Source of the DNA: Escherichia coli
Lineage (GTDB): Bacteria > Pseudomonadota > Gammaproteobacteria > Enterobacterales > Enterobacteriaceae
DNA length: 64,000 nt
Direction: 5' to 3' (one strand)
Assembly (NCBI RefSeq): GCF_011045215.1
Contig: NZ_CP049201.1
Notes under the pieces: model-generated
Databases searched by the model: none
The model's input: the letters and a program-made list of their open reading frames with translations, nothing else
Told to the model about the DNA's origin: nothing
Position numbers and translations under genes: made by a program
Shown here: in pieces, positions 13,073 through 29,832 of the stretch
Numbering within the stretch: position 1 is the stretch's first letter
How the letters are laid out: every line of letters begins with the position of its first letter

Positions 13073-13110
13073 ACGGTCCCGTTCTGGACCCTGATAAAGA
13101 GGAAAGCACA

Positions 13111-13404: not shown

Positions 13405-13510
13405 TCACCCTGTGTGACGTCGATTCGGGCGTCACGCTCTCTCATTTTTCATTTTACCTTCCGCGGAGGGTAGGGGGAGCTTTTACCTGAAATACGCCAC
13501 GGAGGCGGGT

Positions 13511-13798: not shown

Positions 13799-13809
13799 GG
13801 CAGAACATC

Positions 13810-15213
13810 ATGAATCAACAGGATATTGAACAGGTGGTGAAAGCGGTACTGCTGAAAATGCAAAGCAGTGACACGCCGCCCGCCGCCGTTCATGAGATGG
13901 GCGTTTTCGCGTCCCTGGATGACGCTGTTGCGGCAGCCAAAATTGCCCAGCAAGGGTTAAAGAGCGTGGCAATGCGCCAGTTAGCCATTGCTGCCATTCG
14001 TGAAGCAGGCGAAAAACACGCCAGAGATTTAGCGGAACTTGCCGTCAGTGAAACCGGCATGGGTCGCGTTGAAGATAAATTTGCCAAAAACGTCGCTCAG
14101 GCACGCGGCACGCCAGGCGTTGAGTGTCTCTCTCCGCAAGTGCTGACGGGCGACAACGGCCTGACTTTAATTGAAAACGCGCCATGGGGCGTGGTGGCTT
14201 CGGTGACGCCGTCCACTAACCCGGCGGCAACCGTAATTAATAACGCCATCAGCCTGATTGCCGCGGGCAACAGCGTCATTTTTGCCCCGCATCCGGCGGC
14301 GAAAAAAGTCTCCCAGCGGGCGATCACGCTGCTCAACCAGGCGATTGTTGCCGCAGGCGGGCCGGAAAACTTACTGGTTACTGTGGCAAATCCGGATATC
14401 GAAACCGCGCAACGCTTGTTCAAGTTTCCGGGTATCGGCATGCTGGTGGTGACCGGCGGCGAAGCGGTAGTAGAAGCGGCGCGTAAACACACCAATAAAC
14501 GTCTGATTGCCGCAGGCGCTGGCAACCCGCCGGTAGTGGTGGATGAAACCGCTGACCTCGCCCGTGCTGCTCAGTCCATCGTCAAAGGCGCGTCTTTCGA
14601 TAACAACATCATTTGTGCCGACGAAAAGGTACTGATTGTTGTTGATAGCGTAGCCGATGAACTGATGCGTCTGATGGAAGGCCAGCACGCGGTGAAACTG
14701 ACCGCAGAACAGGCGCAGCAGCTGCAACCGGTGTTGCTGAAAAATATCGACGAGCGCGGAAAAGGCACCGTCAGCCGTGACTGGGTTGGTCGCGACGCAG
14801 GCAAAATCGCGGCGGCAATCGGCCTTAAAGTTCCGCAAGAAACGCGCCTGCTGTTTGTGGAAACCACCGCAGAACATCCGTTTGCCGTGACTGAACTGAT
14901 GATGCCGGTGTTGCCCGTCGTGCGCGTCGCCAACGTGGCGGATGCCATTGCGCTAGCGGTGAAACTGGAAGGCGGTTGCCACCACACGGCGGCAATGCAC
15001 TCGCGCAACATCGAAAACATGAACCAGATGGCGAATGCTATTGATACCAGCATTTTCGTTAAGAACGGACCGTGCATTGCCGGGCTGGGGCTGGGCGGGG
15101 AAGGCTGGACCACCATGACCATCACCACGCCAACCGGTGAAGGGGTAACCAGCGCGCGTACGTTTGTCCGTCTGCGTCGCTGTGTATTAGTCGATGCGTT
15201 TCGCATTGTTTAA
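13810..15213 (+). CDS. eutE: Acetaldehyde dehydrogenase (CoA-acylating) EutE
   Basis: 467-aa aldehyde dehydrogenase family ORF in eut operon. Confidence 0.9.
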   Translation: MNQQDIEQVVKAVLLKMQSSDTPPAAVHEMGVFASLDDAVAAAKIAQQGLKSVAMRQLAIAAIREAGEKHARDLAELAVSETGMGRVEDKFAKNVAQARGTPGVECLSPQVLTGDNGLTLIENAPWGVVASVTPSTNPAATVINNAISLIAAGNSVIFAPHPAAKKVSQRAITLLNQAIVAAGGPENLLVTVANPDIETAQRLFKFPGIGMLVVTGGEAVVEAARKHTNKRLIAAGAGNPPVVVDETADLARAAQSIVKGASFDNNIICADEKVLIVVDSVADELMRLMEGQHAVKLTAEQAQQLQPVLLKNIDERGKGTVSRDWVGRDAGKIAAAIGLKVPQETRLLFVETTAEHPFAVTELMMPVLPVVRVANVADAIALAVKLEGGCHHTAAMHSRNIENMNQMANAIDTSIFVKNGPCIAGLGLGGEGWTTMTITTPTGEGVTSARTFVRLRRCVLVDAFRIV

Positions 15214-17237: not shown

Positions 17238-17420
17238 ATGCCGGATGCGACGCTTGCCGCGTCTTATCCGGCCTACGGGATTGCACATGTAGAGCGGATA
17301 AAGCGTTCACGCCGCATCCGCCAGTGGCGCGGTGCAATTGCCGGATGCGACGCTTGCCGCGTCTTATCCGGCCTACGGGATTGCACATGTAGTGCGGATA
17401 AGGCTTCACGCCGCATCCGC
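17238..17420. repeat. BIME/REP cluster (two near-identical ~85-bp units)
   Basis: Unit gccggatgcgacgcttgccgcgtcttatccggcctacgggattgcacatgtag...gcggataa..cacgccgcatccgc present twice between eutG and eutH. Confidence 0.7.
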
Positions 17421-17452
17421 TAATAAATAACAACTAACAGGGAGTAAAGGCG

Positions 17453-18679
17453 ATGGGAATTAACGAAATCATCATGTACATCATGATGTTCTTTATGCTG
17501 ATAGCTGCCGTAGACAGGATCCTGTCGCAGTTCGGCGGTTCTGCTCGTTTCCTCGGTAAGTTCGGTAAAAGTATCGAAGGATCAGGCGGTCAGTTCGAAG
17601 AAGGCTTTATGGCAATGGGCGCACTGGGCCTGGCGATGGTCGGTATGACCGCGCTGGCACCGGTACTGGCTCACGTACTCGGGCCGGTAATTATCCCGGT
17701 TTACGAAATGCTCGGCGCAAACCCGTCAATGTTCGCCGGAACGCTGCTGGCGTGCGATATGGGCGGCTTCTTCCTCGCCAAAGAGCTGGCGGGCGGCGAC
17801 GTAGCAGCGTGGCTATACTCTGGGTTAATTCTCGGGTCGATGATGGGGCCAACGATTGTGTTTTCCATTCCGGTGGCGCTCGGCATTATCGAACCTTCTG
17901 ACCGTCGTTATCTGGCGCTCGGCGTGCTGGCGGGCATTGTGACCATTCCGATTGGTTGTATCGCTGGTGGTCTGGTAGCTATGTACTCCGGTGTGCAGAT
18001 CAACGGCCAGCCGGTGGAATTCACTTTCGCCCTGATCCTGATGAACATGATCCCGGTGATCATTGTTGCGATTCTGGTGGCGCTGGGGCTGAAATTCATC
18101 CCGGAAAAAATGATCAACGGCTTCCAGATCTTCGCCAAATTCCTCGTTGCATTGATCACCCTCGGTCTTGCCGCTGCGGTAGTGAAATTCCTGCTTGGCT
18201 GGGAACTGATCCCCGGTCTGGATCCTATCTTTATGGCCCCTGGCGATAAACCCGGTGAGGTGATGCGCGCCATTGAAGTTATCGGTTCTATCTCCTGCGT
18301 TCTGTTAGGGGCGTATCCGATGGTGCTGCTGCTGACCCGCTGGTTTGAAAAACCGCTGATGAGCGTCGGTAAAGTGCTGAATATGAACAACATCGCGGCA
18401 GCCGGCATGGTGGCAACGCTTGCCAACAACATCCCGATGTTCGGCATGATGAAGCAGATGGATACCCGCGGCAAAGTCATCAACTGCGCCTTCGCCGTTT
18501 CTGCTGCTTTCGCCCTGGGCGACCACTTAGGGTTCGCCGCTGCCAACATGAATGCCATGATCTTCCCGATGATTGTCGGCAAGTTGATCGGCGGCGTAAC
18601 GGCGATTGGCGTGGCGATGATGCTGGTGCCAAAAGACGACGCGACCGCAGCTAAAACCGAAGCGGAGGCACAATCGTGA
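17453..18679 (+). CDS. eutH: Ethanolamine permease EutH
   Basis: 408-aa highly hydrophobic multi-pass membrane ORF in eut operon. Confidence 0.9.
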   Translation: MGINEIIMYIMMFFMLIAAVDRILSQFGGSARFLGKFGKSIEGSGGQFEEGFMAMGALGLAMVGMTALAPVLAHVLGPVIIPVYEMLGANPSMFAGTLLACDMGGFFLAKELAGGDVAAWLYSGLILGSMMGPTIVFSIPVALGIIEPSDRRYLALGVLAGIVTIPIGCIAGGLVAMYSGVQINGQPVEFTFALILMNMIPVIIVAILVALGLKFIPEKMINGFQIFAKFLVALITLGLAAAVVKFLLGWELIPGLDPIFMAPGDKPGEVMRAIEVIGSISCVLLGAYPMVLLLTRWFEKPLMSVGKVLNMNNIAAAGMVATLANNIPMFGMMKQMDTRGKVINCAFAVSAAFALGDHLGFAAANMNAMIFPMIVGKLIGGVTAIGVAMMLVPKDDATAAKTEAEAQS

Positions 18680-20079
18680 ACACTCGCCAGCTACTGAGCG
18701 TCGGTATCGATATCGGCACTACCACCACCCAGGTGATTTTCTCCCACCTGGAACTGGTTAACCGTGCGGCGGTGTCGCAGGTGCCGCGCTACGAATTCAT
18801 CAAACGCGAAATTAGCTGGCAAAGCCCGGTGTTCTTTACCCCTGTCGATAAACAGGGTGATTTAAAAGAAGCGGAACTGAAATCGCTGATTTTAGAGCAA
18901 TATCAGGCTGCGGGCATTGCACCGGAAAGCGTTGATTCTGGTGCCATCATCATCACCGGTGAAAGCGCGAAAACCCGCAATGCTCGCCCGGCGGTGATGG
19001 CGCTCTCTCAGTCGCTGGGCGATTTTGTCGTTGCCAGCGCCGGGCCGCACCTCGAATCCGTGATCGCCGGTCACGGAGCCGGGGCACAAACCCTTTCTGA
19101 ACAACGGCTGTGTCGGGTACTGAATATCGACATCGGCGGTGGCACCGCGAACTACGCCCTGTTCGATGCCGGAAAAATCAGCGGCACTGCCTGCCTCAAC
19201 GTCGGTGGTCGCCTGCTGGAAACCGACAGCCAGGGGCGCGTGGTTTACGCTCATAAACCGGGGCAGATGATTGTGGATGAGTGCTTCGGCGCAGGCACCG
19301 ACGCCCGTTCGCTGACCGGCGCGCAGCTGGTGCAGGTTACCCGGCGGATGGCAGAGCTGATTGTCGAAGTGATTGACGGAACGCTCTCGCCGCTCGCGCA
19401 GGCATTGATGCAAACCGGTTTGCTGCCCGCAGGTGTTACGCCCGAAATCATTACGCTTTCTGGCGGCGTGGGCGAATGTTATCGCCACCAGCCCGCCGAC
19501 CCGTTCTGTTTTGCCGATATTGGCCCGCTTCTGGCAACGGCGCTGCATGACCATCCGCGCCTGCGTGAGATGAACGTGCAGTTTCCGGCGCAAACCGTGC
19601 GTGCCACGGTGATTGGCGCGGGGGCACATACCCTTTCGCTCTCTGGCAGCACAATCTGGCTTGAGGGCGTACAACTGCCGCTGCGCAATTTGCCGGTGGC
19701 GATCCCGATTGATGAAACGGATCTGGTGAGTGCCTGGCAACAGGCGCTGATTCAACTGGATCTTGATCCCAAAACTGACGCGTACGTGCTGGCGCTTCCC
19801 GCCTCGCTGCCTGTGCGTTACGCCGCGGTACTGACGGTCATCAACGCGTTGGTCGATTTCGTCGCGCGTTTTCCGAATCCGCATCCCCTGCTGGTGGTGG
19901 CCGGGCAGGACTTTGGTAAAGCTCTGGGCATGTTGTTGCGCCCACAGCTACAACAACTCCCGTTGGCAGTCATTGACGAAGTGATTGTCCGCGCGGGGGA
20001 CTATATCGACATTGGTACGCCTCTTTTTGGCGGATCGGTTGTGCCGGTGACGGTGAAATCACTCGCATTTCCTTCCTGA
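18676..20079 (+). CDS. eutA: Ethanolamine ammonia-lyase reactivase EutA
   Basis: 467-aa ORF, 4-nt overlap with eutH; eut operon synteny; followed by the inserted element. Confidence 0.9.
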   Translation: MNTRQLLSVGIDIGTTTTQVIFSHLELVNRAAVSQVPRYEFIKREISWQSPVFFTPVDKQGDLKEAELKSLILEQYQAAGIAPESVDSGAIIITGESAKTRNARPAVMALSQSLGDFVVASAGPHLESVIAGHGAGAQTLSEQRLCRVLNIDIGGGTANYALFDAGKISGTACLNVGGRLLETDSQGRVVYAHKPGQMIVDECFGAGTDARSLTGAQLVQVTRRMAELIVEVIDGTLSPLAQALMQTGLLPAGVTPEIITLSGGVGECYRHQPADPFCFADIGPLLATALHDHPRLREMNVQFPAQTVRATVIGAGAHTLSLSGSTIWLEGVQLPLRNLPVAIPIDETDLVSAWQQALIQLDLDPKTDAYVLALPASLPVRYAAVLTVINALVDFVARFPNPHPLLVVAGQDFGKALGMLLRPQLQQLPLAVIDEVIVRAGDYIDIGTPLFGGSVVPVTVKSLAFPS

Positions 20080-20172
20080 ATACTGTAGTTATCAGGCGTG
20101 GCGCTGGGTTGCGGGGTGTTAGTGGGATTATATCCGGCTGTGTATCCGGTCGGGGTGATTGGTCTGTATAGC

Positions 20173-20194
20173 AAAACCCGGCGCGGGGCCGGGT
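20173..20194 (-). terminator. Intrinsic terminator (minus-strand orientation)
   Basis: On minus strand reads ACCCGGCCCCGCGCCGGGTTTT: GC stem CCCGGC/GCCGGG followed by U-run, 7 nt after stop of the 20201-20761 gene; identical copy at 21822-21843. Confidence 0.6.
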
Positions 20195-20200
20195 GAACTA

Positions 20201-20761
20201 TCATTCAGGGAACAAGTTGATTTGAAGCAAACTGCCAATGTATTTACCAGTGCTTTTAATTTTTCGCTTTGATGGCTTACACGAATTCAGGTTGACACCA
20301 GCCTGGCTAGATATTGGCTTGTATTGCCGCTCCGCCAGTACGATCAGGTCTGCCGCGTCTTTTAGCTTTCCATCGTTAGCCAGTTCCAATGCTCGATCCG
20401 CCATTTGCCCGCATTGTTGAATCAGCTTAAGTTGCGATACCTCCAGTCGCAATTGCTGGATTCGTTCTACCACTTTCGCCCTAATGCGCTTAGTTTCACG
20501 CATTCCCATTCTTAATGCCTGGTTGCCAGTAAGTGAGTAAACCTCTTTTTCTTTCCTGAAGTTTGCGGCTTTACCGTCAGCTTGGACGCGCATTTTATGC
20601 GCTTCCAAGAATTCGCCCTCCAATTCATCCCTGATCTTCGCGTTGAATCTGTCGTTCTTGAGTTCATTTAACCCTTCCGCCTTGCGGATCTGGTTGATTA
20701 ACTCCAACAATTCATCACTGCGGATACGCCACTCGCTATCAACCTGTACCAAGTCAAACAT
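20201..20761 (-). CDS. Hypothetical phage protein (186 aa from ATG with GGGAG RBS; coiled-coil, possibly regulatory)
   Basis: ORF with good RBS upstream of internal ATG at 20761 (track start 20854 is TTG); no confidently recognised domain. Confidence 0.55.
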   Translation of the reverse strand: MFDLVQVDSEWRIRSDELLELINQIRKAEGLNELKNDRFNAKIRDELEGEFLEAHKMRVQADGKAANFRKEKEVYSLTGNQALRMGMRETKRIRAKVVERIQQLRLEVSQLKLIQQCGQMADRALELANDGKLKDAADLIVLAERQYKPISSQAGVNLNSCKPSKRKIKSTGKYIGSLLQINLFPE

Positions 20762-20924
20762 GTTGTTGCTCCCGTTTTGCTGCCATAGGGCAACGGCTCG
20801 CCAGCCTTTATCACCTCCTTTAGTTGTTGCGATTCTTAACTGAATGGTTATCAAAACGCTGCGTTAATATCATTGATATGTATCAAATTTGTTTTGTGAC
20901 GCGACAATGCCTTGTGAATATCAA

Positions 20925-20949
20925 TAAAAAACCCAGCGCTATGGCTGGG
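20925..20949 (-). terminator. Intrinsic terminator (minus-strand orientation)
   Basis: Minus strand CCCAGCcatagcGCTGGG followed by UUUUUU, 45 nt downstream of stop of 20995-21723 gene. Confidence 0.5.
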
Positions 20950-20994
20950 CTTCTCTTGATGGCTGGTTTTGTAGCTAATCGTTGGCTTTAAGGG

Positions 20995-21723
20995 TTAAGC
21001 AACAATATTAATCCCGCTCCTTGTCGCTGCCTCTTTGGCAATTTTCCCCTCGTCCTCCAGTTTAGCTAACGCCTTGTACATCCAGTGGCGGCCCGGTGCG
21101 CCATGCAGCTTGCCATCTTTGCCGATCTTACCGAACGCATGTAACGCCAAATCGTCGATAGTCCCCTTGTATCCGCCTTGCTCCTTAAGCCATTGCTCAA
21201 GCTGTTCTACTTTGAATTTTGCCGGACGTCCGCCAGCCGCTTTTTGTTGTTTAGCTGGTTCTTCTGCAATATCGCTTTTGTTGTTTAAGTCCGTCATGAC
21301 TGGTTCTCCTACAATAGCGTCGCCCTTGGTCTCGATTTGTTGATTAACTGGTTTGTCTACAATATCGATTTTGTTGTTTAGCTGGTTTTTCAACATATCA
21401 ATCTCAGCCTTTAGCGCCTCGTTTTCTCTGGCTAGTTCTTCGCAACGCTTGATAAATTTTTGTTCCATGCCGTCCGGGCTATCAACGTGCGCCGTACCCA
21501 TTACGATCTTCCCGTTGCTATCGAAGATGACAGCTTGCCAACCGACTGCGGCGAGCATTTTAAACACATCATCAGCGGTCTTGTTTGTTGTATCGCGACG
21601 CCCTTTAAACTTGTGGCTAGCAGCGCCTTTGCCTTTGAAGCCCATTGCCTCAGCGACATCTTGCCGCGTCATCTTGCGAGCGCGCTTGTTCATGCCTAAC
21701 TCAACCCAATCCATGTATTCCAT
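20995..21723 (-). CDS. Hypothetical phage protein with internal tandem peptide repeats (242 aa)
   Basis: ORF with GAGGT RBS; DNA and protein contain imperfect tandem repeats (LNNKIDIVDKPVNQQ / LNNKSDIAEEPAKQQ); basic N-terminal region possibly DNA-binding. Confidence 0.6.
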   Translation of the reverse strand: MEYMDWVELGMNKRARKMTRQDVAEAMGFKGKGAASHKFKGRRDTTNKTADDVFKMLAAVGWQAVIFDSNGKIVMGTAHVDSPDGMEQKFIKRCEELARENEALKAEIDMLKNQLNNKIDIVDKPVNQQIETKGDAIVGEPVMTDLNNKSDIAEEPAKQQKAAGGRPAKFKVEQLEQWLKEQGGYKGTIDDLALHAFGKIGKDGKLHGAPGRHWMYKALAKLEDEGKIAKEAATRSGINIVA

Positions 21724-21821
21724 ACATTACCTCATTTTGTCGCTAAACGTTTTGCTTTCTAATTTATCAACAAAAAAGCGGGTGATGGTAGCCGCTTTGA
21801 TGGGGAAGTTGACAGGGATCA

Positions 21822-21843
21822 AAAACCCGGCGCGGGGCCGGGT
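21822..21843 (-). terminator. Intrinsic terminator (minus-strand orientation), identical copy of 20173-20194
   Basis: Same 22-bp sequence aaaacccggcgcggggccgggt; 18 nt downstream of stop of AlpA-like gene 21861-22091. Confidence 0.6.
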
Positions 21844-21860
21844 ATTAGCAAGTTAGATGA

Positions 21861-22091
21861 TTACTGGGTATCGCTGTCAGAAAGTAGTCCAATTGATTTA
21901 AAGAATTTCATCACATCCTGATAGCGATACATGACGCCCCGCCCGGTTCCCAGCACATCAACAGGGTCGGGGAATGGAGTTCCGTTCTGTTCCCATTTCT
22001 TACGCCACGAATAAAACGTTCCCCTGCTAATTCCGCCCAGCATCCGGCAGATGGCAGGGCGGCTAAGAAGGATTACTTCATTTTTATCCAT
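21861..22091 (-). CDS. AlpA-family phage transcriptional regulator / excisionase-like HTH protein (76 aa)
   Basis: Motif LSRPAICRMLGGISRGTFYSWRKK...FPDPV typical of AlpA/Xis-type HTH; GGGAGA RBS. Confidence 0.6.
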   Translation of the reverse strand: MDKNEVILLSRPAICRMLGGISRGTFYSWRKKWEQNGTPFPDPVDVLGTGRGVMYRYQDVMKFFKSIGLLSDSDTQ

Positions 22092-22110
22092 TGTTTAATC
22101 TCCCGTGTGT

Positions 22111-22299
22111 TTATTTTGCGTAGATTAAGGCAAATGCTCTTTTGGCTTTGCTTAGTTCGTATTCGCGTTTTTCTATGATTGCCATCAGTTCTTGTGCGGT
22201 GGCTGGCACGCCCGCTCTTATCAGCGCAATCTTAGTATCCATAGCGCACACTCTTTCACGCACCATATCGAAGATAATTTCCGCTCTATCGTGTTTCAT
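22111..22299 (-). CDS. Small hypothetical protein (62 aa)
   Basis: ORF with strong GAGGTGA RBS 5 nt upstream of ATG; 19 bp upstream of AlpA-like gene, likely co-transcribed. Confidence 0.5.
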   Translation of the reverse strand: MKHDRAEIIFDMVRERVCAMDTKIALIRAGVPATAQELMAIIEKREYELSKAKRAFALIYAK

Positions 22300-22648
22300 G
22301 ATTTCACCTCATATTTGTTGCTAAACCTTGTAAACCCTTGTTTGACTACAAAATACACCTGGTTAAGCGACTGATAAAATGATTTAGGTCAATTTATTGG
22401 TTGATGATTTATGTCTGATTGGATTTGTCTACAAATGGCAGGTTAGTCAACAAATGATGAAACCAGGGAATGGCGGTTATAATGTCAGCGGGGATTGTGA
22501 GAAAGGCCCGGGTAGGTTGCTAACTGCCTGGGCCTTTATTTTTGGCGCGTGTACGTGAAATCTGGAAAATTTGCAGGGTAGTTGTTGAGGGATTTTTCGC
22601 GTAGGAGCGTGAAGGGTCCGCCAGTCATCGCCCTGACGTAGCGGTGAA

Positions 22649-23050
22649 TTACTTGCGAGGCTCACCCATCGGCCAGGCACCTTCATTGCGACGATAACCA
22701 ATCCGGTACTCTTCCGGCAGCGGCAAGCCCTGCTCACGATATGGACGCAGATCGAAGCCAAAAACAGGATCGTCGTCGTAGGCGAGGAATAGCCCGGCAG
22801 GCTCTGCCACGCGTTCGATAATCAGTTCCCCATCTTCAACGAAGAAGATCAGATTATCGCGAAAGTCCGTTACCTCACTGACGTGATAACATTCGGCATG
22901 TGCGTCCAGCCAGGCTTCTCGGTATTCCTGAATCTCGGCTTCTGACCATGTTGAAACAGGACGCTCCCAAATTCCCAGGCTGGATTTGCCCTGGCGGGAG
23001 AATAATTTTGCCTCTTTGCTCTGCTCTGGTTTTCTGTTTAAAAAGCTCAT
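22649..23050 (-). CDS. Hypothetical protein (133 aa)
   Basis: ORF with AAGGAGAA RBS; no recognised domain. Confidence 0.55.
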   Translation of the reverse strand: MSFLNRKPEQSKEAKLFSRQGKSSLGIWERPVSTWSEAEIQEYREAWLDAHAECYHVSEVTDFRDNLIFFVEDGELIIERVAEPAGLFLAYDDDPVFGFDLRPYREQGLPLPEEYRIGYRRNEGAWPMGEPRK

Positions 23051-23186
23051 TATTCTTCTCCTTTGAACGGATTGTTCTTGCTCTCTAATAACTTAGCGCG
23101 ACCCAGTAACGTCCGGGCAAGCGCCTCCGCCTTCCTTAGCCTAAGCCCTGCGTCTTCTGCGTCCAGATCTACATTCCTGATAGCCT

Positions 23187-23450
23187 CTACAGCCTGCTCC
23201 GCTGCGTCCGGGCGTGAATCCACTTAAATATGCCGATATGCTCACGAAAGTCTGGATGCTCATATTGCCAGCGGCAGATTGTTCTGAAGCTCGGCATGTC
23301 AGGCATGTTGCCAATCTCTCTGAGACTATGGCCTTCAGCTACCAGCAAGCAGATTTCTTCAGCGATAGCGACCCCATACTTAGCGCTTTTTCTGCTTAAA
23401 CTTGTGACATCAACAGGTAAGTTATTGATTTCTTTATCATCACCCTTCAT
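23187..23450 (-). CDS. Small HTH protein resembling the DNA-binding domain of phage terminase small subunits (87 aa)
   Basis: Motif AEGHSLREIGNMPDMPSFRTICRWQYEHPDFRE resembles TerS-type HTH; GGGGGTAA RBS; family assignment is from memory and tentative. Confidence 0.4.
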   Translation of the reverse strand: MKGDDKEINNLPVDVTSLSRKSAKYGVAIAEEICLLVAEGHSLREIGNMPDMPSFRTICRWQYEHPDFREHIGIFKWIHARTQRSRL

Positions 23451-23525
23451 AATTACCCCCGAATTGATAGCGAATTGATAGCGAATTACCCCGAATTACC
23501 CCCGAATTACCCCCGAATCACCATC
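23451..23525. repeat. Tandem array of about 6.5 copies of an 11-bp unit (AATTACCCC(C)G x4 and AATTGATAGCG x2)
   Basis: Directly visible: aattaccccc g aattgatagc g aattgatagc g aattacccc g aattaccccc g aattaccccc g aatcaccatc, exactly filling the gap between the 93-aa gene stop and the 87-aa gene start. Confidence 0.85.
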
Positions 23526-23527
23526 AT

Positions 23528-23809
23528 TTAACCCTCGCCTACGTCTGCGTCGATGCTTGCTAACTGGCTGTGTAGATCGCGTTCAATCATTTTTACCTTT
23601 TTCACAAAATCCCTTTCCTCGGCGGTGGCGGGCGCGCCCTGGGCTATGTTTTTCGTGAGGTCGTGGAAAGTGCCGAAAACATAAAGGGAGAACAGCCTTA
23701 ATTGTTGCCGCTTCATTGGCAAATCACTGTTGCTATGTTTGATCTCAGCGACGCCTTTCGAAATAACACGGGCCATCCCATGACAAATTCTTAACGTAAG
23801 CGCAGACAT
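23528..23809 (-). CDS. Hypothetical protein (93 aa)
   Basis: ORF with GGGGAG RBS; no recognised domain. Confidence 0.5.
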   Translation of the reverse strand: MSALTLRICHGMARVISKGVAEIKHSNSDLPMKRQQLRLFSLYVFGTFHDLTKNIAQGAPATAEERDFVKKVKMIERDLHSQLASIDADVGEG

Positions 23810-23930
23810 GATATTTACTCCCCGACTGGTATAATGAACGTGGTTTTAAACGTTGCTATTTGCTAACCATTTAATCTGTTAACTCAATTTCGCATTGTTG
23901 GCCCGGCACGAACACCGGGCTTTTCTTTAC

Positions 23931-24272
23931 CTATTCGAAATAGCTTCCAATATCCGGTGTCCGGGTATCAGTTTTCCGGGTCGGCTCGAAGTACGATTCC
24001 AGATCCGGCGTTTTCGGCCCACGCTGGGCGTTGGCGGCGGGTTGCTTTTCTTCTGGCTGTTCCGGCTGTTTACTACCAAATCGGCGCTCCAGTTGGTCCA
24101 TCAGCACTACCATCATTTCCTGGACCAGCTTTTCATCGGCTTTATCAAGGTTCTCCAATACCATCGCCATCCCTTTGCGGAATTTAAGCTCAGCGTCGTC
24201 CGGTTCCGGTGCTGATTCGTTTGCTTTAACTGCCAGGGCGATCCGGCGTTTTGCTTCATCCAAAAAATTCAT
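23931..24272 (-). CDS. Hypothetical acidic protein ending in repeated SYFE motif (113 aa)
   Basis: ORF with GGGGGAA RBS overlapping stop of upstream gene; C-terminus ...DLESYFEPTRKTDTRTPDIGSYFE. Confidence 0.5.
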   Translation of the reverse strand: MNFLDEAKRRIALAVKANESAPEPDDAELKFRKGMAMVLENLDKADEKLVQEMMVVLMDQLERRFGSKQPEQPEEKQPAANAQRGPKTPDLESYFEPTRKTDTRTPDIGSYFE

Positions 24273-24277
24273 TTTGT

Positions 24278-24721
24278 TTATTCCCCCATGTGGAAATAGT
24301 CATCTAAGCGGCGATTAAACTCGTCGCTGCCATCGAAATATTCACGGATACTTTTATTGACCAGATCATCACCGTCGAAATACTGGCGCGTGAAATCGTC
24401 CAATTCCCCATCGAAGTATTGACGTGTGAAATCGTCTAATTCCCCTTCAAAATATTGACGCGCATCAGGCGCTCTGTTTGGCGCTGTAGCAATCTCAGAT
24501 TGATTGCCCTGTAACTTATCGACGTTTGCTAAATACACGCCCAGTGAGCTGTTTGTTCCCATTACCGCAAGCATTTTCCGGCGATCTGCCATGTTCGGCG
24601 CGAGCGATGATAATTGAGCTTTAATTTTGTCCACTTCCTGATTAACAATACGGTCAATCAGTGGTTGATTCGTGCGAATAATTTCCTGTGCCAACTGGCG
24701 AATATATTCTTTGCGTGTCAT
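24278..24721 (-). CDS. Hypothetical protein with C-terminal tandem RQYF(D/E)GELDDFT repeats (147 aa)
   Basis: ORF with GGAGAT RBS; encoded by about 3.5 tandem 36-bp DNA repeats near 24330-24465. Confidence 0.55.
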   Translation of the reverse strand: MTRKEYIRQLAQEIIRTNQPLIDRIVNQEVDKIKAQLSSLAPNMADRRKMLAVMGTNSSLGVYLANVDKLQGNQSEIATAPNRAPDARQYFEGELDDFTRQYFDGELDDFTRQYFDGDDLVNKSIREYFDGSDEFNRRLDDYFHMGE

Positions 24722-24739
24722 TTCTTATCTCCGTTCATC

Positions 24740-25123
24740 TCATTTCTGTAAAAAACCCATACCGTGGCCCAGGCGATTTGAAATTTTCCCGGCAAGCATC
24801 CGGCGAATATGTTTTTCGTTGATGATGTCGTGAGTGACCGGATCTTCACCTTTCATACATTCCGGCATCTGGTCAAACAATACGGAAGCGCCTTCATCAA
24901 TAATCTCAGTTAAGACTGCTGGCAGCATATTAATGATGCGTTCTGCTTCGTCGTTCATTGCTTTATCGAACGCTTTTTTATCCATTGCTTCGGCGGATGG
25001 TTTGTAATTGTCGCCAGTCAGGTTAAGGTAAGTGTTGTTTGGGTGATACATGGCATTCACTCCTTTTACTTTGATTGTTGCGATTTCTTTGTTTTTGTTA
25101 ATTGTGGTGCCTTTGACTTTCAT
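24740..25123 (-). CDS. Hypothetical protein (127 aa)
   Basis: ATG overlaps stop of HNH gene (ATGA), suggesting translational coupling; no recognised domain. Confidence 0.5.
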   Translation of the reverse strand: MKVKGTTINKNKEIATIKVKGVNAMYHPNNTYLNLTGDNYKPSAEAMDKKAFDKAMNDEAERIINMLPAVLTEIIDEGASVLFDQMPECMKGEDPVTHDIINEKHIRRMLAGKISNRLGHGMGFLQK

Positions 25124-25539
25124 GCTGCTTCTTCCTTCAATAATTGTGGCAATTTGCCTGTTAGTTCGATTTCTTCATTAATAGATGCAAGTAACTGTCT
25201 CAGTTTGCGATGTAATAGCTGGTGACGCTCTCTCGGCATTTTTACCAGGTTGCTTAAGCGGTTATTCTGCGGATCGTAGTCCCGGTGATGGATATCATAT
25301 TTTCGCTCATCGTAAACACCGTAGCACCATAACCAGGCAGCCTTTTCTATTGTCATGCAGGTACGTTTTCCGTTGCTTAAACAAATGGTTATACTCAGGT
25401 GACCGCGATGTTTTTCGTTTAAGCTGCCTTTAATTACCTGGCCTGTGCTGCGGTTGTGAAATAAACCAGTTTCAGGGTCGTAGTGATATTTCTGTCGTAA
25501 TATATCAACTGATAACCGTAGTCTTGTAAGATTGTCCAT
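25120..25539 (-). CDS. HNH homing-type endonuclease (139 aa)
   Basis: Motif YDIHHRDYDPQNNRLSNLVKMPRERHQ (HH...N...N...H) typical of phage HNH nucleases; GAGGTAG RBS. Confidence 0.7.
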   Translation of the reverse strand: MDNLTRLRLSVDILRQKYHYDPETGLFHNRSTGQVIKGSLNEKHRGHLSITICLSNGKRTCMTIEKAAWLWCYGVYDERKYDIHHRDYDPQNNRLSNLVKMPRERHQLLHRKLRQLLASINEEIELTGKLPQLLKEEAA

Positions 25540-25571
25540 GATGTTCTACCTCAATGTGATTGCTGTGTTAA

Positions 25572-25757
25572 TTATCTTTCTTCTTGTGGCCTATTCAGCC
25601 AGGCCTCGATCTCGCTACGCCAGAATAATAAACGACAATTTCGCGGCGTAAATGGTTGGGGTATTGTCTTATCTTTTAATAGCCATCTTCGAATCGTTCT
25701 TGTTGATACCCCCGCTATTAATGCGAAAGCTCGCAGATCTATAACTTCATCTCTCAT
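25572..25757 (-). CDS. AlpA-like HTH regulator (61 aa from ATG with GAGGT RBS)
   Basis: Sequence LIAGVSTRTIRRWLLKDKTIPQPF...WRSEIEAWL matches AlpA/Xis-type HTH pattern; track ORF start 25862 is a TTG extension. Confidence 0.55.
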   Translation of the reverse strand: MRDEVIDLRAFALIAGVSTRTIRRWLLKDKTIPQPFTPRNCRLLFWRSEIEAWLNRPQEER

Positions 25758-26537
25758 GTTCTTACCTCGATTAAAAAGGACCGCCCCCAGGGAAAGAAGA
25801 AAGAGGAAAGAGGAAAGAGGAAAAACTTCCTGGAGGCGGGTAATTCGGATTCCTTGAATCAATATCCCATGTGATACTTAATATTATAAAGGGCGGCGGG
25901 CTATGTCGCTATTTTTGCCATAGTGTGACACCATTAATTTATTAACAAAAAGTGCTATTTATTAAATCTTTTTTCGGCAGGTGCAAGAAAAATAATTGCG
26001 ACACGGTAGGGTAGCGGGCGATAATAATCATGTAAGGAGTAGCCACCTTACGCCTCCAAATGTGATCGATAAAAATAATAGTCTCAATTCTTTCTCCCGC
26101 TTCTCGGCGGTTTTTTTGCCTGCAATCACACATCAAAAAAACACATCGAATTGATATGCCTTTAAAACGCAATATAACGCATTTTGACGGCCTTAATTTT
26201 TGCCTATCCACTCGGAAGCGTAAGCCTGTTTTGATTCGTCTGGCGTGGAATGGTGCGGCGGTAATATCAGATCTCAGCGTTCTGTGTGGTGGGATGGAAT
26301 AGCCTGGCAGGATCTGCGTGTGATTTCATTCATCCAACCTTGGATGAATGGTCCGATCTGGTCAGTAGTCCGGCACAAATAAAAAGCGCCTGCGGGCGTA
26401 GCAGACGCTTTGTGTACAGGCTTATCAGTACGGGATGTGCACGAATGATTATACCACCCTCAGAAAAACGTTTGCTTTTGCACTTAAACGGATAAGTGGT
26501 ATTTCTTGGTCTTCATTGGTTTTAGCTCACCATAGGC

Positions 26538-26765
26538 TCATTTAGGTGCGCCCCTGTCGATAATTCGGTACATGTTCTCGGTATATCTCCCGTTAATCAC
26601 CGTTCTGGTAACAACAATCACACCGTTTTCCTCCAGAAAGGCAATGGCCCGCTTCACTCCCTGGCGGCTTACACCGGATAGCTGCGCCAGCCTGTCAATG
26701 GAGATGTTGTATTTGTCCGGCTGGCTTGTCAGGATCTGGAATACCGCTCGTGCTGTTTTCGTCAT
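26538..26765 (-). CDS. Small winged-helix DNA-binding protein (75 aa), candidate regulator
   Basis: Sequence ISIDRLAQLSGVSRQGVKRAIAFLEENGVIV has HTH character; divergent from the plus-strand cassette; RBS weak. Confidence 0.45.
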   Translation of the reverse strand: MTKTARAVFQILTSQPDKYNISIDRLAQLSGVSRQGVKRAIAFLEENGVIVVTRTVINGRYTENMYRIIDRGAPK

Positions 26766-27037
26766 GGCAAAAACTCATTGAAATTGGATACCCTTAGAAC
26801 GCTCTCAAACGCTCCGTAATGCGATGAGAATTTTACCTAAGCAAGTGTAGCTCTTTATTAGTTTTATGATGCCGTAGGCCGATAGAAGGTGCGCTCTCTG
26901 AAGTTTCATTGTCTATCAGTGGTGGGTAATGCTGCCTTTACTATTGGCGTCAAGAAAATCACTGGTGTAGATTGGGCGAATAGTTTACTATTCAAACAAG
27001 GCACAATGGCCTTAGCGGATTGATGTCAGGAGATACC

Positions 27038-27385
27038 ATGTCAAAAATAGTTACTTTGTTTGCGACTAAGCGAGAAGGGAAATCCCTTTCTGTGCGCACT
27101 CGTAAGCCAAAAGCTATGACTGGCTTGCGTAAAACAAATCGTCTGACGCATCTTGACGCGTTAGCGTATCGACTAGGATACCAGTTGGTGCGCGGTAAAA
27201 GTGTCATGTTTCGCTACACTGCTACTCTCGATCACGAAGAAAACAAAGTGATGAATGCGGCCTCGCCTATGGCTGTACCACGAGTAAAAAAAATGACGTT
27301 CACACAAGCGTGTGATTTATCAAAAGATTTATTCGATTCACGAGAAGAACGCTTAAAGAGTGTAAGCTTTGATGGTCCAGAATGA
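27038..27385 (+). CDS. Basic 115-aa protein, candidate partner (antitoxin or regulator) of downstream YafO-like gene
   Basis: ATG at 27038 preceded by AGGAGA RBS; stop overlaps start of next gene by 14 nt; basic N-terminus and acidic C-terminus; no recognised family. Confidence 0.5.
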   Translation: MSKIVTLFATKREGKSLSVRTRKPKAMTGLRKTNRLTHLDALAYRLGYQLVRGKSVMFRYTATLDHEENKVMNAASPMAVPRVKKMTFTQACDLSKDLFDSREERLKSVSFDGPE

Positions 27386-27887
27386 ATTTATTGGTAAGGT
27401 CTACAGTGATAACAAGTTTAAAACAAACGATGAATTAAAGAGCTTTAAGGATTCGTTTATTTATCATTGGAGATATGGACATCATCCTGATTTTGGAAAG
27501 GATACTCTTTTCCATAAACCCCCGTGTGTATATCCTATCCATTTACGTAAAGTCCATGTAAATATTGGTCTTTATACCAATCAGTACGGCTATAGCGGGA
27601 CAGAACAATGCTGGGATGACTGGTCTACTGGTCGTTATGGTCCCGGTGGTTTCGAAAAAGTTACCCCTACATCTGATGCTTATCTTATATACGCTGTATG
27701 TAAAAATAGAAATGCTGGCGTGTTAGACTTCTGGTTTCCTCCCGCACACAAAAACGCTGAGTTCGAATCCTCTGTACAGTTTGTGGCTGAGATGGCTGAT
27801 AAGTTTTATGAGTCTATCAAGGCGGACCCGATGCCGCGCGATCAGAATCCTTGGCATACGGGGTATATAGTTAAAAAACCAGCCTGA
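27372..27887 (+). CDS. YafO-family toxin-like protein (171 aa)
   Basis: Motifs F-I-Y-H-W-R-Y-G...PDFGKDTLF, YPIHLRKVHVN and SDAYLIYAV line up with recalled YafO motifs (FISYKRDG...PDIFGRDALY, ERVAHIHLAN, DEAHLVYCQG); similarity judged from memory, not computed. Confidence 0.45.
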   Translation: MVQNEFIGKVYSDNKFKTNDELKSFKDSFIYHWRYGHHPDFGKDTLFHKPPCVYPIHLRKVHVNIGLYTNQYGYSGTEQCWDDWSTGRYGPGGFEKVTPTSDAYLIYAVCKNRNAGVLDFWFPPAHKNAEFESSVQFVAEMADKFYESIKADPMPRDQNPWHTGYIVKKPA

Positions 27888-28438
27888 TCCACGCAATACT
27901 GATTGTTTTTGGCCTTGTATGGTGTGGTCTGATTTGAGGCAAAATTATTTAATCCCTTAAAAAACTAACTTCAAAAGACTAAAACCAGGGGGATGGTCCC
28001 TCTCGCTCCGCTCCAGGTACCATCCCTGTCGGGATGGGTTTATTGTAGAGTTAAAATTAATTACTCACATCGTCACACCTTGCGAAAGTTTTGCTCAATT
28101 ATCATTCAAACATAGCACAAAAAATATTCGATTTAGTTAGTGTGCACTGACTTTTTTATCAATTTACTTTCATTCGAAAGTCATGGGTTAAATATTAATC
28201 ATCTGGCTGTGGCACGCATGGATTCACCGAGGGTATTTTGGACCATTTGGTCAAAATTCATAAGTACATGATTTCATGGTGATTTATTTTTCTGTATCTT
28301 GCTTTCATTCGAAAGTGGAAACGAAGAATTGGCAATTTATTGATTCAGATCATTGACATTGCATATTTGTGGCGGTTGTCACGGTTGTTTTTTGAGCGCT
28401 TCAACCGTCGATATTGAGTATAAACCCGGCCTTATAGT

Positions 28439-29644
28439 TCACGGTTCAAGTGGATTACCGTCACCAGCCAATATTGAATCAATAGCGTCGGCGTAATCCT
28501 GCATCATTGCTCGCCGTTGCTTCAGGTAGGCCGCCTGGTTATAAACGCCGCGCACACCTTTCGGGACGTGGGCCAATTGGATTTCGATCCAGTCTGGTGA
28601 GTATCTGCCAGACTCATTAAGCGCCGTTGAAAAGGTGGTCCGCCAGCCATGACCAGTGGCAATGGATTTATAGCCGATCCTCTCAAGCGCCTTCAGTATC
28701 GCGCTGGCTGAAAGTGGCTTATCCATGAATCGACCAGGGAAGACGAAAGCACTGTATCCGCTCCTTGTAAACTGGTCCTGTAATAGCTCCACCGCCTGCC
28801 GTGATAGCGGGACCACATGCGGGCGGCGGGCCTTCATGACTTCAGCGGGCAATGTGATTGTTGCGTCCTCCAGGTTTATCCATTCCCAACGGCACAAACG
28901 CAGTTCTGCGGTCCTTAATGCCGTTAATATAAGCAAACGTATTGCCGTCTGAATCTGGACGCTCCCGGCCCTCTCAAGGGCTTTGTAGAAGGCCGGAATT
29001 TCACTAATCGGTATCCACGCGTTGTGACCAGGTCGGCGGGCCTTCAGTGCCGTATCAAGATCTGCAACCGGATTCCTCGTTACCAGTTCGGTGATAACGG
29101 CAAACTTGAAGATCTCACCGATGCGCTGGCGTAGCTTGCGGGCCTGCTCCGGTGCGGTACGTTCTTTCTTCTGGAGTAATGCCAGCACGTCACGGGCGGT
29201 TATATCGACAATCGACCGCTTGCCAAGTACCGGATAGACGTCTTTTTCTAGGGCCGATCTGACCTGTTTTGCATAGGATTCCGACCACCCTCCAACCCTA
29301 GTAGCAAACCAGTCTTCCGCCACCTTCTTAAATCCTGCCGCCATGTTGAGCGCATCAATGGCTTTTTCCTTGCGGGCTTGTTCCACTGGGTTAATTCCAT
29401 TGGCAATAAGGGATCTGCTCTCCGTGGCGCGCCTGCGTGCTTCTTTGAGTGTGATTAGCGGGTAAACACCAATAGCCTGCAAAAACTCTCGTTTATTCAA
29501 CCAATACCTGAATCGCCAGTATTTCGAACCGTTGGGATGCACCAGCAAAAACAGCCCCGGCGTCAGTGAATCGGTGAGTTTATAGGGCTTGTCCTGCGGC
29601 TGTGCGGCGTCTATGGCCTTTGCTGTGAGTGGTGTCTTGCTCAA
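28439..29644 (-). CDS. intZ: Tyrosine-type site-specific integrase (prophage integrase)
   Basis: 401-aa ORF with phage integrase features (N-terminal arm-binding domain, C-terminal catalytic region with ...HGWRTT...); sits at the element end beside eutB as intZ does in E. coli K-12; start appears to be TTG. Confidence 0.8.
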   Translation of the reverse strand: MSKTPLTAKAIDAAQPQDKPYKLTDSLTPGLFLLVHPNGSKYWRFRYWLNKREFLQAIGVYPLITLKEARRRATESRSLIANGINPVEQARKEKAIDALNMAAGFKKVAEDWFATRVGGWSESYAKQVRSALEKDVYPVLGKRSIVDITARDVLALLQKKERTAPEQARKLRQRIGEIFKFAVITELVTRNPVADLDTALKARRPGHNAWIPISEIPAFYKALERAGSVQIQTAIRLLILTALRTAELRLCRWEWINLEDATITLPAEVMKARRPHVVPLSRQAVELLQDQFTRSGYSAFVFPGRFMDKPLSASAILKALERIGYKSIATGHGWRTTFSTALNESGRYSPDWIEIQLAHVPKGVRGVYNQAAYLKQRRAMMQDYADAIDSILAGDGNPLEP

Positions 29645-29832
29645 AACCGGATACCTTGATTTAACGACTGGATAACCCCGATCATGTATCCGGCGCGTTC
29701 GGTTGCGTTCGGCAGGATAAGTAACGGGCGTATTAAGTGGAACACCTTACAGGACAAGGGCTAACGATGAAATAGAATTGTTTGCAGGCTGTGAGAAATG
29801 TTAATCGTCACTTCTTCCTGAGGGAACGACTT

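Follow-up and report, generated by a model that had tools for sequence, protein, structure and literature searches.

Predicted intrinsic terminators of one sequence mark, and probably act as, module junctions in a CPZ-55-family element of Escherichia coli

The DNA analysed here is a stretch of 64,000 nucleotides from Escherichia coli (assembly GCF_011045215.1, contig NZ_CP049201.1), referred to below as the window. It carries an integrative element between the host genes eutA and eutB, and the eutA-proximal end of this element harbors three short hairpins, T1, T2 and T3, each of them behind a gene of the minus strand. The features of the locus are the following:

18676..20079, plus strand: eutA, host gene running toward the minus-strand genes of the island, with T1 in between
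20080..29813: CPZ-55-family integrative element, a cryptic prophage with satellite-like gene content, 9.7 kb between eutA and eutB
20173..20194, minus strand: T1, predicted terminal terminator of the island; ACCCGGC-CCCGC-GCCGGGU (20194->20176), then UUU GCUAU
20201..20761, minus strand: cassette gene 1, an ORF of 186 aa with T1 as its predicted terminator; distantly related to the Ant1/Ant2 antirepressor of phage P1
20822..20925, minus strand: ultra-conserved regulatory spacer that directly follows T3 and precedes the 186-aa gene
20926..20955, minus strand: T3, third hairpin of the family, diverged in sequence; plus-strand sequence AAAAAACCCAGCGCTATGGCTGGGC
20995..21723, minus strand: cassette gene 2, an ORF of 242 aa with T3 as its predicted terminator; HTH/XRE-family regulator according to the annotation of relatives
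21822..21843, minus strand: T2, second copy of the same hairpin (21843->21825), then UUUU GAU
21861..22091, minus strand: gene of a 76-aa HTH (HTH_23) protein with T2 as its predicted terminator
22502-22537: predicted terminator with a 14-bp stem, called by the terminator scan; candidate stop on the plus strand
28439..29644, minus strand: IntZ-type tyrosine integrase (Arm-DNA-bind_3, Phage_int_M, Phage_integrase), intZ in annotated relatives

The element begins directly after the stop codon of eutA and its IntZ integrase adjoins eutB, which assigns it to the CPZ-55 family. It is bracketed by an 8-bp target duplication, CTTCCTGA (20072-20079 and 29814-29821), and an 8-bp duplication has also been described for the CPZ-55 of K-12 (PMC6379469). 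The G+C content drops just past the end of eutA (~20.0 kb) and stays low up to ~28.5 kb inside the element. The K-12 element (yffL-yffS, intZ) resembles the one in the window in its insertion site, the 8-bp duplication, the integrase family, the homologous ends and both hairpin positions. Contrastingly, its cargo is yffS instead of the Ant-like gene and the 242-aa regulator, and its length is 6.8 kb compared to 9.7 kb. The idea that the repeated 22-mer described below is the attachment repeat of the island was rejected, as the longest word common to the two island ends has 9 nt and the duplication is the 8-bp sequence given above. A literature search for papers linking CPZ-55 to phage satellites found none.

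The cassette genes differ in how far their relatives can be traced. The 186-aa ORF matches the anti-repressor families of PHROG (E 8e-6) and shares 37% identity with P1 ant1 over 116 aa; related elements carry very divergent alleles of this gene between flanks that are conserved on either side. Relatives of the gene were sought in viral contigs, as the same cassette in another backbone, and none was confirmed. The 242-aa protein gave no match in the phage collection, and its gene is replaced by yffS in K-12 and in the related element L206. The gene of the 76-aa HTH protein shows 86% DNA identity to a gene located beside the integrase of phage mEp021. The PADLOC defence models and NCBIfam returned nothing useful for the cassette proteins.

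The sequence AAAACCCGGCGCGGGGCCGGGT is present on the plus strand of the window in two exact copies (20173-20194 and 21822-21843), and no other copy is found even when three mismatches are tolerated. In 100 dinucleotide-preserving shuffles of the window the number of matches to the 22-mer was 0.00, and we estimate the chance that 64 kb contains some identical pair of 22-mers at ~1e-4. A repeat search recovers the same pair with a spacing of 1649 nt. When the surroundings of T1 and T2 are aligned (+/-80 nt), the homology stops at the edges of the repeat and the flanks are unrelated; the shared block grows by at most one C before the A-run, and this only if the A-run length is allowed to differ by 1 nt. 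The central observation of the preliminary description, namely an identical 22-mer behind two different minus-strand genes with differing flanks, is thus borne out. The same description had named a longer duplicated block including coding sequence as the finding that would speak against it, and such a block is ruled out by the lack of homology outside the repeat.

Both copies have the composition of an intrinsic terminator: a G+C-rich stem-loop and a U-run with a co-oriented gene just upstream, and compensatory changes in the stem when relatives are compared. The terminator scan calls T1 and T2 on the minus strand with 7 pairs (6 of them G-C), a loop of 5 nt and the tails TTTGCTATAC and TTTTGATCCC. 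The hairpin has a folding energy of about -12.8 kcal/mol, and the tails that follow the closing A-U pair are UUUGCUAU in T1 and UUUUGAU in T2. The hairpin of T1 begins 6 nt past the stop codon that ends the 186-aa ORF, and its distance to the stop codon of eutA is 94 nt; that of T2 begins 17 nt past the stop codon of the 76-aa HTH ORF. It is very probable that T1 and T2 serve as terminators. The U-run is UUU in T1 and UUUU in T2, with one more U in each when the closing A-U pair is included. In the window the U-run of T1 is one U shorter than in most relatives, and because it is so short (3-4 U) T1 may leak. There is no U-run behind the T1 and T2 hairpin on the plus strand, which agrees with the suggestion of the preliminary description that the two would hinder transcription arriving from eutA only weakly; on this strand T3 and the predicted 14-bp-stem terminator at 22502-22537 are the more likely stops. 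The Term-seq supplements of Adams et al. 2021 (PMC7815308) and of TERMITe (PMC12207403) contain no entries for yffS, yffR or the K-12 coordinates of the hairpins. An Rfam scan of positions 19500-30000 gave two chance-level matches only (E 0.6-0.7), none of them at T1 or T2.

The third hairpin, T3, was overlooked in the preliminary description. Compared to T1 and T2 it has one stem pair changed from G:C to A:U and a loop of 6 nt, and on the minus strand its stem is extended to 12 bp and followed by U6 (-20.7 kcal/mol, z -5.9). As T3 also has a U-rich tail on the plus strand, it may work in both directions. The spacer at 20822..20925 is never separated from T3; it contains the TTGATA motif several times, the palindrome TTGATAcaTATCAA included, and shows ~100% column identity in 11 elements, the coding sequence of which is 65-85% conserved. 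In the related element L208 the T3 hairpin directly occupies the T1 position and is joined to the island end. No minus-strand promoter-like site with at least 9 of 12 matches is present in the spacers beside T1, T2 and T3. Weak promoter candidates can be noticed in these spacers by eye only.

We compared the window element with 13 related E. coli elements including K-12 CPZ-55, which gives a set of 14. The T1 and T2 hairpins are found at the same positions in every one of them, and the consensus at the T1 position is the same 22-mer as the consensus at the T2 position. Across the elements the hairpin is ~95% identical, and the identity of the flanks is 46-72%. Among the 10 distinct variants in the 14 elements, a small set, 97% of the cells pair, compared to 31-56% in slid controls. 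Compensatory changes affect 3 of the 7 stem pairs (A-U to G-C, G-C to A-U and G-C to U-A), and only 3 of 500 shuffles match the observed stem covariation. The loop is CCCGC in most copies, with five loop variants and an indel tolerated, and a U-run is kept on the strand of the gene in every copy. The annotated relatives show the same arrangement of a hairpin behind a co-oriented gene; in K-12 the hairpins flank yffS (NC_000913.3, 2564404-2564426 and 2565364-2565387) and differ from those of the window by one substitution in T2 and by one insertion and one substitution in T1.

Since the two positions are occupied by the pair in each of the 14 elements and have a single consensus, the pair is ancestral to the family. 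To judge from these comparisons, the copies within the island family are related by descent and are old rather than recent. One would argue that T1 and T2 are identical due to ongoing gene conversion (concerted evolution) or to recent copying in this strain, as they agree at 22 of 22 positions in the window and in the elements L001, L198 and L207 despite a difference of ~10% in the flanking DNA. However, they differ at 3 positions in K-12 and at 1-3 positions in L195, L196, L197, L199, L200, L204, L205 and L206, and since the two often differ inside a single element, homogenisation is weak at best. The common consensus at both positions is accounted for by ancestry and selection, and the presence of the pair throughout the set excludes a recent event in this strain. 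We consider gene conversion or recent copying improbable. The preliminary description had offered modular assembly or recent recombination between cassettes as the meaning of the repeat; the second part of this proposal fails for the reason just given, and the first part is upheld by the ends of homology between islands, which are located at the hairpin edges as described below.

It could also be that the hairpin is not chiefly a terminator but a site for a protein or nuclease (attC-like, another structure-specific recombination site, a packaging site or an operator) or a REP/MITE-like repeat. Its location at cassette borders is the one known for attC, and its loop is fairly conserved. The attC sites of integrons are imperfect palindromes of 57-141 nt with R'', L'', L' and R' boxes (GTTRRRY) and an IntI integrase nearby. 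The hairpin studied here is a simple 19-nt stem-loop with neither the GTTRRRY box nor the other R and L boxes, and the sole recombinase of the element is IntZ, a phage-type integrase with a different and known target; an integron attC site was accordingly rejected. The class of REP/BIME or MITE-like dispersed repeats, which would call for tens to hundreds of copies per genome, was rejected as well, the hairpin being present in one to four. The tolerance of loop variants and of an indel, the lack of an Rfam match and the U-run that always lies on the strand of the gene also speak against such roles, and we regard them as highly unlikely.

The same sequence is found outside the islands. In phage mEp021 an exact 25-mer is annotated as 'terminator TERM_5' upstream of the holin gene, and in phage HK639 the exact 22-mer is the annotated terminator behind HK639_47. 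The mEp021 terminators t1, t2 and t5 are reported to have been demonstrated experimentally (PMC11893012), and we infer from the order of numbering that t5 is TERM_5. The phage terminators are identical to the island hairpins at 25 of 25 and 22 of 22 nt, have the same orientation to the genes and are followed by a U-run; they differ in that they have unrelated genes on their flanks, that only one copy occurs in each phage and that they are not known to mark module joints. The exact 22-mer is further found in the genomes of ~97 unrelated species and in 95 viral contigs, with unrelated flanks, and we estimate the expectation for a random 22-mer in that database at ~0.03. A sequence that recurs in ~100 unrelated species is a generic terminator sequence, so the identity of T1 and T2 taken alone is weaker evidence than the preliminary description had assumed.

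This frequency, far above the expectation, would agree with convergence or chance, in which two independent terminators arrived at the same sequence as a common solution. However, at ~1 match per 1000 species genomes the independent origin of two neighbouring copies is negligible. Among the matches listed, the viral-contig hairpins with the same stem number at least 126 and have at least 53 different loops, GCGGG being present in 4 of them (~3%). The shuffled windows contain no match and most E. coli terminators do not have this sequence, and we give convergence hardly any credence. Within the species, matches are confined to 578 of 5426 E. coli genomes, with a median of 1 and a maximum of 4 places in each of these genomes, and the few match sites whose context was inspected are all located in CPZ-55-type islands or prophages.

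The relation of the hairpins to the modules of the island becomes visible when related elements are aligned. Homology to K-12, L196 and L200 stops at 20193-20195, which is the edge of T1, and homology to L195, L199 and L200 stops at 21842, the edge of T2. The K-12 element is homologous at 19900-20193 (92.6%), a segment that takes in the terminal part of eutA as well as the island end with T1, and again at 22470-22639. When all elements were compared with one another, 160 of the 472 HSP ends and 40 of the 350 HSP starts were located at most 3 nt from a hairpin edge, where ~1.3% would be expected if they were uniform; as the elements are related, these pair counts are not independent events. The left flanks are conserved, and the right flanks (12 nt) comprise seven different sequences behind T1 and seven behind T2, or ~6 and ~5 classes, respectively, when near-identical flanks are merged. 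The element L196 is devoid of the Ant-like cassette. L001 is like the window up to 21844 and has another haplotype from 21868, the switch being located between these two positions. The repeats thus coincide with replacement and indel joints between related elements, and T1 and T2 are probably real intrinsic terminators that mark, and probably act as, module junctions.

A different explanation of these joints is that the hairpins, as ordinary terminators, are no more than passive landmarks: the joints would be illegitimate and random, selection would have kept those with an intact gene and terminator, and the likeness of the hairpins would be due to ancestry and purifying selection. In temperate phages, mosaic joints generally coincide with gene borders (Hendrix-type mosaicism). 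Selection clearly acts on the structure of the hairpin, and the islands and the hairpin-bearing phages have no cassette in common, which both agree with passive landmarks; a tblastx comparison of mEp021, HK639 and the L201 prophage with the 14 islands revealed no common cassette beside the hairpin and hence no evidence for exchange between islands and phages via the hairpin. However, the intergenic spacers are 120-230 nt long and selected random joints should be scattered across them, and instead dozens of pairwise homology ends recur 0-3 nt from the same hairpin edge. Moreover, ~5-6 different neighbouring genes adjoin the same base, and the joints of L208 and L196 resemble an exchange of hairpin by hairpin. 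We find it rather unlikely that the hairpins are passive landmarks.

The explanation that we favour, with moderate confidence in the account as a whole, is that the hairpins are Rho-independent terminators of leftward accessory genes which double as module joints by crossing-over. T1, T2 and T3 would all terminate transcripts of accessory genes that lie on the minus strand, at the end of the CPZ-55-family element nearest to eutA. T2 would stop the transcript that leaves the island core genes via the 76-aa HTH gene, T3 would stop the transcript of the 242-aa regulator gene, and T1 would stop that of the Ant-like gene and shield the converging eutA from antisense transcription out of the island. 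Since every module here finishes in the same short hairpin, the hairpins would also be the places where modules join; related islands are alike up to the gene-proximal edge of the hairpin and have a different gene beyond it. The most likely cause would be crossing-over within or beside the ~22-bp shared hairpin, after which selection would retain the terminator together with an intact gene. A length of 22 bp lies at the lower limit for RecA-dependent exchange. That the hairpins are themselves the substrate of the crossover, and not landmarks only, we hold to have an even chance or slightly better. Breakpoints at gene ends are also an expected outcome of illegitimate recombination with subsequent selection, the hairpin being uninvolved.

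Comparable arrangements are known from other mobile elements. Phage morons are accessory genes that have been placed between the blocks of a mobile-element genome and bring along regulatory signals and a terminator of their own. The island genes are similar in that they have their own terminator and are set between blocks of the element; unlike morons, which are defined gene by gene, they form successive units with one common terminator sequence, and their joints map to the terminator. Tn916 (PMC11658703) likewise has a terminator near one end of the integrated element that checks transcription across the border between element and host. The Tn916 terminator blocks incoming transcription, as was shown by experiment, whereas T1 would block outgoing transcription toward eutA. 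A further parallel is provided by the promoter-early stem-loop (PeSL) cassettes that T4-type phages carry (Arbiol et al., 2010, PMC2839356; Comeau et al., 2014, PMC4122927). The shuffling of modules is ascribed to recombination between these repeats. There too, short repeated motifs bearing a terminator stand between accessory genes of a plastic region, at the joints of insertions, deletions and replacements. However, a PeSL combines a strong sigma-70 consensus promoter with the stem-loop, and the hairpin of the island stands alone (~22 nt) with no adjoining consensus promoter. The PeSLs are present in ~50 copies per genome in virulent T4-type phages, and their mini-circles were demonstrated; the island hairpins have three copies in an integrative cryptic prophage or satellite. 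One could go further and regard the hairpin family as a minimal analogue of the T4 PeSLs that is made up of the terminator only and serves as an active, portable site of crossover. The CPZ-55-type satellites would then acquire, lose and trade cassettes such as alleles of the Ant-like antirepressor, yffS and regulators at this site, possibly with temperate coliphages bearing the identical hairpin (the mEpimmI group and HK639) as well and perhaps via excised circles. We consider this extension doubtful.

The present findings do not overturn current ideas, as both the placing of terminators at the borders of modules and the shuffling of modules via repeats are familiar from other phages, and the island hairpins are a useful yet fairly ordinary case of modular evolution in mobile elements. 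T1 bears on the extent of antisense transcription from the island into eutA, where the element splits the eut operon. If the hairpins are real crossover points, this would explain how cargo such as antirepressor-like genes is exchanged at the accessory end of the element, the regulatory frame remaining fixed. The island family concerned is widespread in E. coli and includes the CPZ-55 of laboratory K-12, and in that case the hairpins would provide a simple means of recognising the borders of cassettes in such islands from the sequence.

The 22-mer AAAACCCGGCGCGGGGCCGGGT occurs exactly at 20173-20194 (T1) and 21822-21843 (T2) and, with three mismatches allowed, at no other site in the window. 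A shuffled sequence gave no match to it, and a repeat finder recovered the same pair at a spacing of 1649 nt. The preliminary description had reported identical copies with unlike flanks, and both the exact search and an alignment of 80 nt on each side agree with it. Past the edges of T1 and T2 these aligned flanks show no further homology, thus the copies do not lie within a longer duplicated block. On the minus strand both read ACCCGGC-CCCGC-GCCGGGU followed by a U-run, and fold, at about -12.8 kcal/mol, into a 7-bp stem (six of the pairs G-C) closed by a 5-nt loop; on the plus strand neither has a U-run after the stem. A diverged third member, T3, was not picked up earlier. The hairpins of the window are:

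20173-20194, minus strand: T1, beginning 6 nt past the stop codon of the ORF at 20201-20761
20926-20955: T3, AAAAAACCCAGCGCTATGGCTGGGC, of the T1/T2 design, but with a 6-nt loop and with A:U in place of G:C at one stem pair
21822-21843, minus strand: T2, beginning 17 nt past the stop codon of the ORF at 21861-22091
22502-22537, plus strand: terminator-like site, a 14-bp stem then ATTTTTGG, the strongest in the region and opposed to the island genes

The hairpins lie between eutA and eutB, in a block of 9.7 kb whose G+C content is lower; landmarks in and around it are:

18676-20079: eutA, upstream of the block together with eutG and eutH
28439-29644: tyrosine integrase, inside the block
29833: start of eutB, on the far side

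In island-free E. coli genomes the homology to the window ends exactly at the eutA stop codon. The block is bounded by CTTCCTGA at 20072-20079 and 29814-29821, the same 8-bp duplication as described for the K-12 cryptic prophage CPZ-55 (PMC6379469); therefore the element is a CPZ-55-family island. The gene content of related elements is satellite-like: a small-terminase-like protein, an HNH nuclease, HTH regulators and a gene of roughly 2.2 kb, annotated variously as a hypothetical, coiled-coil or tape-measure protein. Because the latter, present in most relatives, is missing from the window (about 22610-22650, compared with 11612-14102 in the related element L197), the window copy is a deleted version and probably a defective one. 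The plus-strand ORF 27369-27887 matches a YafO toxin weakly (Pfam E 2.6e-4, which misses the curated cut-off), and a YafO-family type II toxin is annotated at the matching place in relatives. Short direct repeats cluster at 23451-23519 (three of AATTACCCCCGAATT plus CGAATTGATAG units), adjoining the small-terminase-like gene (23187-23450) on its upstream side, and resemble iterons, or a packaging or operator site. ORF 24278-24721 holds a 36-nt tandem duplication (24369-24440, 81% identical) encoding the repeated peptide YFDGELDDFTRQ. In the eutG-eutH spacer (17238-17433), the length of which differs between E. coli strains, overlapping ORFs on both strands have arginine-rich repeated translations (...CRMRRLPRLIRPTGLHM twice), a pattern typical of tandem REP/BIME-type palindromic repeats.

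Thirteen related E. coli elements (L001, L194-L200, L204-L208) were set against the window; one of these, L197, is inserted elsewhere in the chromosome, adjoining yghO. All elements have a hairpin at the T1 position, 94-96 nt from the island end, and another at the T2 position, 0.9-1.8 kb further inward; eleven have T3 between the two. In K-12 the two hairpins bracket yffS:

NC_000913.3 2564404-2564426: hairpin after yffR
NC_000913.3 2565364-2565387: hairpin after yffS

Across the 14 elements the mean identity of the hairpin is 95% at T1 and at T2, and that of the adjoining 20-60 nt is 46-72%. Ten distinct variants were found with 97% of the stem cells paired, and three of the seven stem pairs show compensatory two-sided changes (A-U to G-C, G-C to A-U, G-C to U-A); in a control with partner columns slid, stem pairing falls to 31-56%. 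The loop varies (CCCGC, CCAGC, CCTGC, CCTCG and one 6-nt form), and the U-run is kept in every variant. Such conservation, covariation, loop variation and U-run retention are what a working terminator hairpin would look like, whereas a site for a sequence-specific protein is argued against by the covariation, the varying loop and the constant U-run.

Annotation elsewhere points the same way. In coliphage mEp021 the exact 25-mer CAAAAACCCGGCGCGGGGCCGGGTA, also present in mEp010, mEp013 and mEp515, bears the annotation 'terminator TERM_5; score=100' and immediately precedes the holin gene, and in phage HK639 the exact 22-mer is the annotated terminator after HK639_47. A 2025 paper on the mEp group reports experimental demonstration of the mEp021 terminators t1, t2 and t5 (PMC11893012); since the five terminators in the GenBank record follow the same numbering order on the phage map, we infer that t5 is probably TERM_5. 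Two published Term-seq data sets gave no entry for yffS, yffR or their K-12 coordinates. The claim that the copies terminate minus-strand genes is thus supported by hairpin anatomy, covariation and the mEp021 and HK639 annotation. Exact copies of the 22-mer are also present in some 97 unrelated species, ranging from Pseudomonas to Nocardia, as well as in 95 viral contigs, where the flanks are unrelated. As this is far above random expectation, the 22-mer is a generic, recurrently evolved terminator, and therefore its identity between distant genomes says little. Viral hairpins with this stem carry 53 different loops among the 126 matches listed, and four of these 126 have the loop GCGGG. An unrelated viral contig (IMG/VR 3300047476_001544) has another identical pair with the same stem and loop GCGCG, at 88-109 and 891-912, 803 nt apart with unlike flanks.

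Within the family, the T1-position and T2-position consensus is the same 22-mer. As the 22-mer is rare (only about one species genome per thousand), its loop is uncommon among the listed viral hairpins with this stem, the copies are neighbours and the same two positions are occupied family-wide, T1 and T2 are related by descent. The duplication is old, as the pair is present in every one of the 14 elements and both positions share one consensus; the 'recent' recombination proposed before finds no sign here. Concerted evolution is weak at best, since T1 and T2 differ at 1-3 positions within several elements, K-12 included.

The hairpins coincide with the borders of the island mosaic. Homology of the window to K-12, L196 and L200 ends at 20193-20195, at T1, and homology to L195, L199 and L200 ends at 21842, at T2, restarting only at 22295. 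When the first 3.2 kb of the elements were compared all against all, 160/472 HSP ends and 40/350 HSP starts lay no more than 3 nt from the edge of a hairpin, where a uniform spread would put about 1.3%; the pair counts are non-independent. For this reason the diversity of neighbours is more telling: T1 is followed on its right by seven different 12-nt flank sequences (about six classes after merging near-identical ones), T2 likewise by seven (about five classes), and the left flanks are recognisably one family throughout. The first cassette is absent from L208, where the island end is fused directly to the T3 hairpin, and from L196, which keeps a T1-like hairpin; in L206 yffS sits between T3 and T2. 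Near T2, L001 follows the window haplotype to 21844, with isolated private differences only (the last at 21755), and from 21868 on has another, very different haplotype, which places a crossover in the 24 nt adjoining the hairpin. L197 switches at about 21735. The hairpin travels with the downstream spacer and the control region of the next gene, not with the gene it terminates. Modular assembly, as suggested earlier, is therefore borne out by homology ends at hairpin edges and by the varied neighbours in 14 elements. The shared sequence of roughly 22 bp may well be the exchange site itself. The chief alternative is that joints form at random places and only those sitting at gene ends survive selection; we consider this rather unlikely, because the joints cluster on a single base although the spacers measure 120-230 nt. 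A further reading, in which the hairpin acts as a portable crossover site in common with temperate coliphages, is also rather unlikely; no cassette next to the hairpin was found to be common to the islands and the hairpin-bearing phages mEp021 and HK639.

The 186-aa minus-strand ORF 20201-20761 is distantly related to the Ant1/Ant2 antirepressor of phage P1, with 37% identity over 116 aa, and matches PHROG anti-repressor families; same-length alleles in relatives are 27% identical (L207) or without detectable similarity (L200) within nearly identical flanks, which resembles the pattern of specificity (immunity-type) alleles. The spacer between T3 and this gene (20822-20950) is about 100% identical in 11 elements, with adjoining coding sequence at 65-85% per column. 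Several TTGATA repeats lie in it, the palindrome TTGATAcaTATCAA among them, and TTGATAA is found in the spacer below T2 too. The spacer at T3 matches nothing in Rfam and folds only slightly more stably than its shuffles; it probably serves as operator and promoter, possibly controlling the neighbouring HTH regulator. The 242-aa regulator ORF (20995-21723) contains three 45-nt direct repeat copies at 21243-21414 (87% and 60% identical to the reference copy), which encode a repeated peptide, and homology to several relatives breaks there (21297-21417). The 76-aa HTH gene upstream of T2 (21861-22091), with two very divergent alleles among islands, is 86% DNA-identical over 21900-22111 to mEp021 1379-1590, a gene adjoining the integrase, and is shared with mEp515 and mEp554; these phages carry the identical terminator too, elsewhere in the genome.

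Beyond the observed anatomy, position, conservation, covariation and coincidence with mosaic joints, the hairpins would act as stops for transcription on the minus strand: T2 for the transcript that leaves the island core via the HTH gene, T3 for that of the 242-aa regulator gene and T1 for that of the Ant-like 186-aa gene. T1 would also keep antisense transcription out of the converging eutA. This role resembles in principle the end-of-element insulator terminator of Tn916 (PMC11658703). For plus-strand transcription from eutA, T1 and T2 should be poor stops, the U-run being absent there, in line with the weak barrier proposed previously; T3, with its U-rich plus-strand tail, and the 22502-22537 site are more likely barriers. 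K-12 CPZ-55 is 92% identical over 22470-22639, spanning the latter site.

Among described systems the nearest is the PeSL cassette of T4-type phages: repeated promoter-plus-stem-loop motifs in plastic regions, through whose recombination accessory genes are shuffled (PMC2839356, PMC4122927). Despite their similar behaviour, the hairpins of the island are not PeSLs: the hairpin alone is repeated, without an adjoining consensus promoter, in three copies compared with about fifty, and in an integrative island. REP/BIME-type repeats were rejected (only 1-4 places per genome), as were attC sites (no boxes, no IntI integrase), and the hairpins match no Rfam family. The core reading of the preliminary description is right, save for 'recent' and the missed island context. 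The hairpins are best classed with the intrinsic terminators, here in a CPZ-55-family element, and double as module borders, and the T1/T2 pair is a tidy example rather than a surprise.
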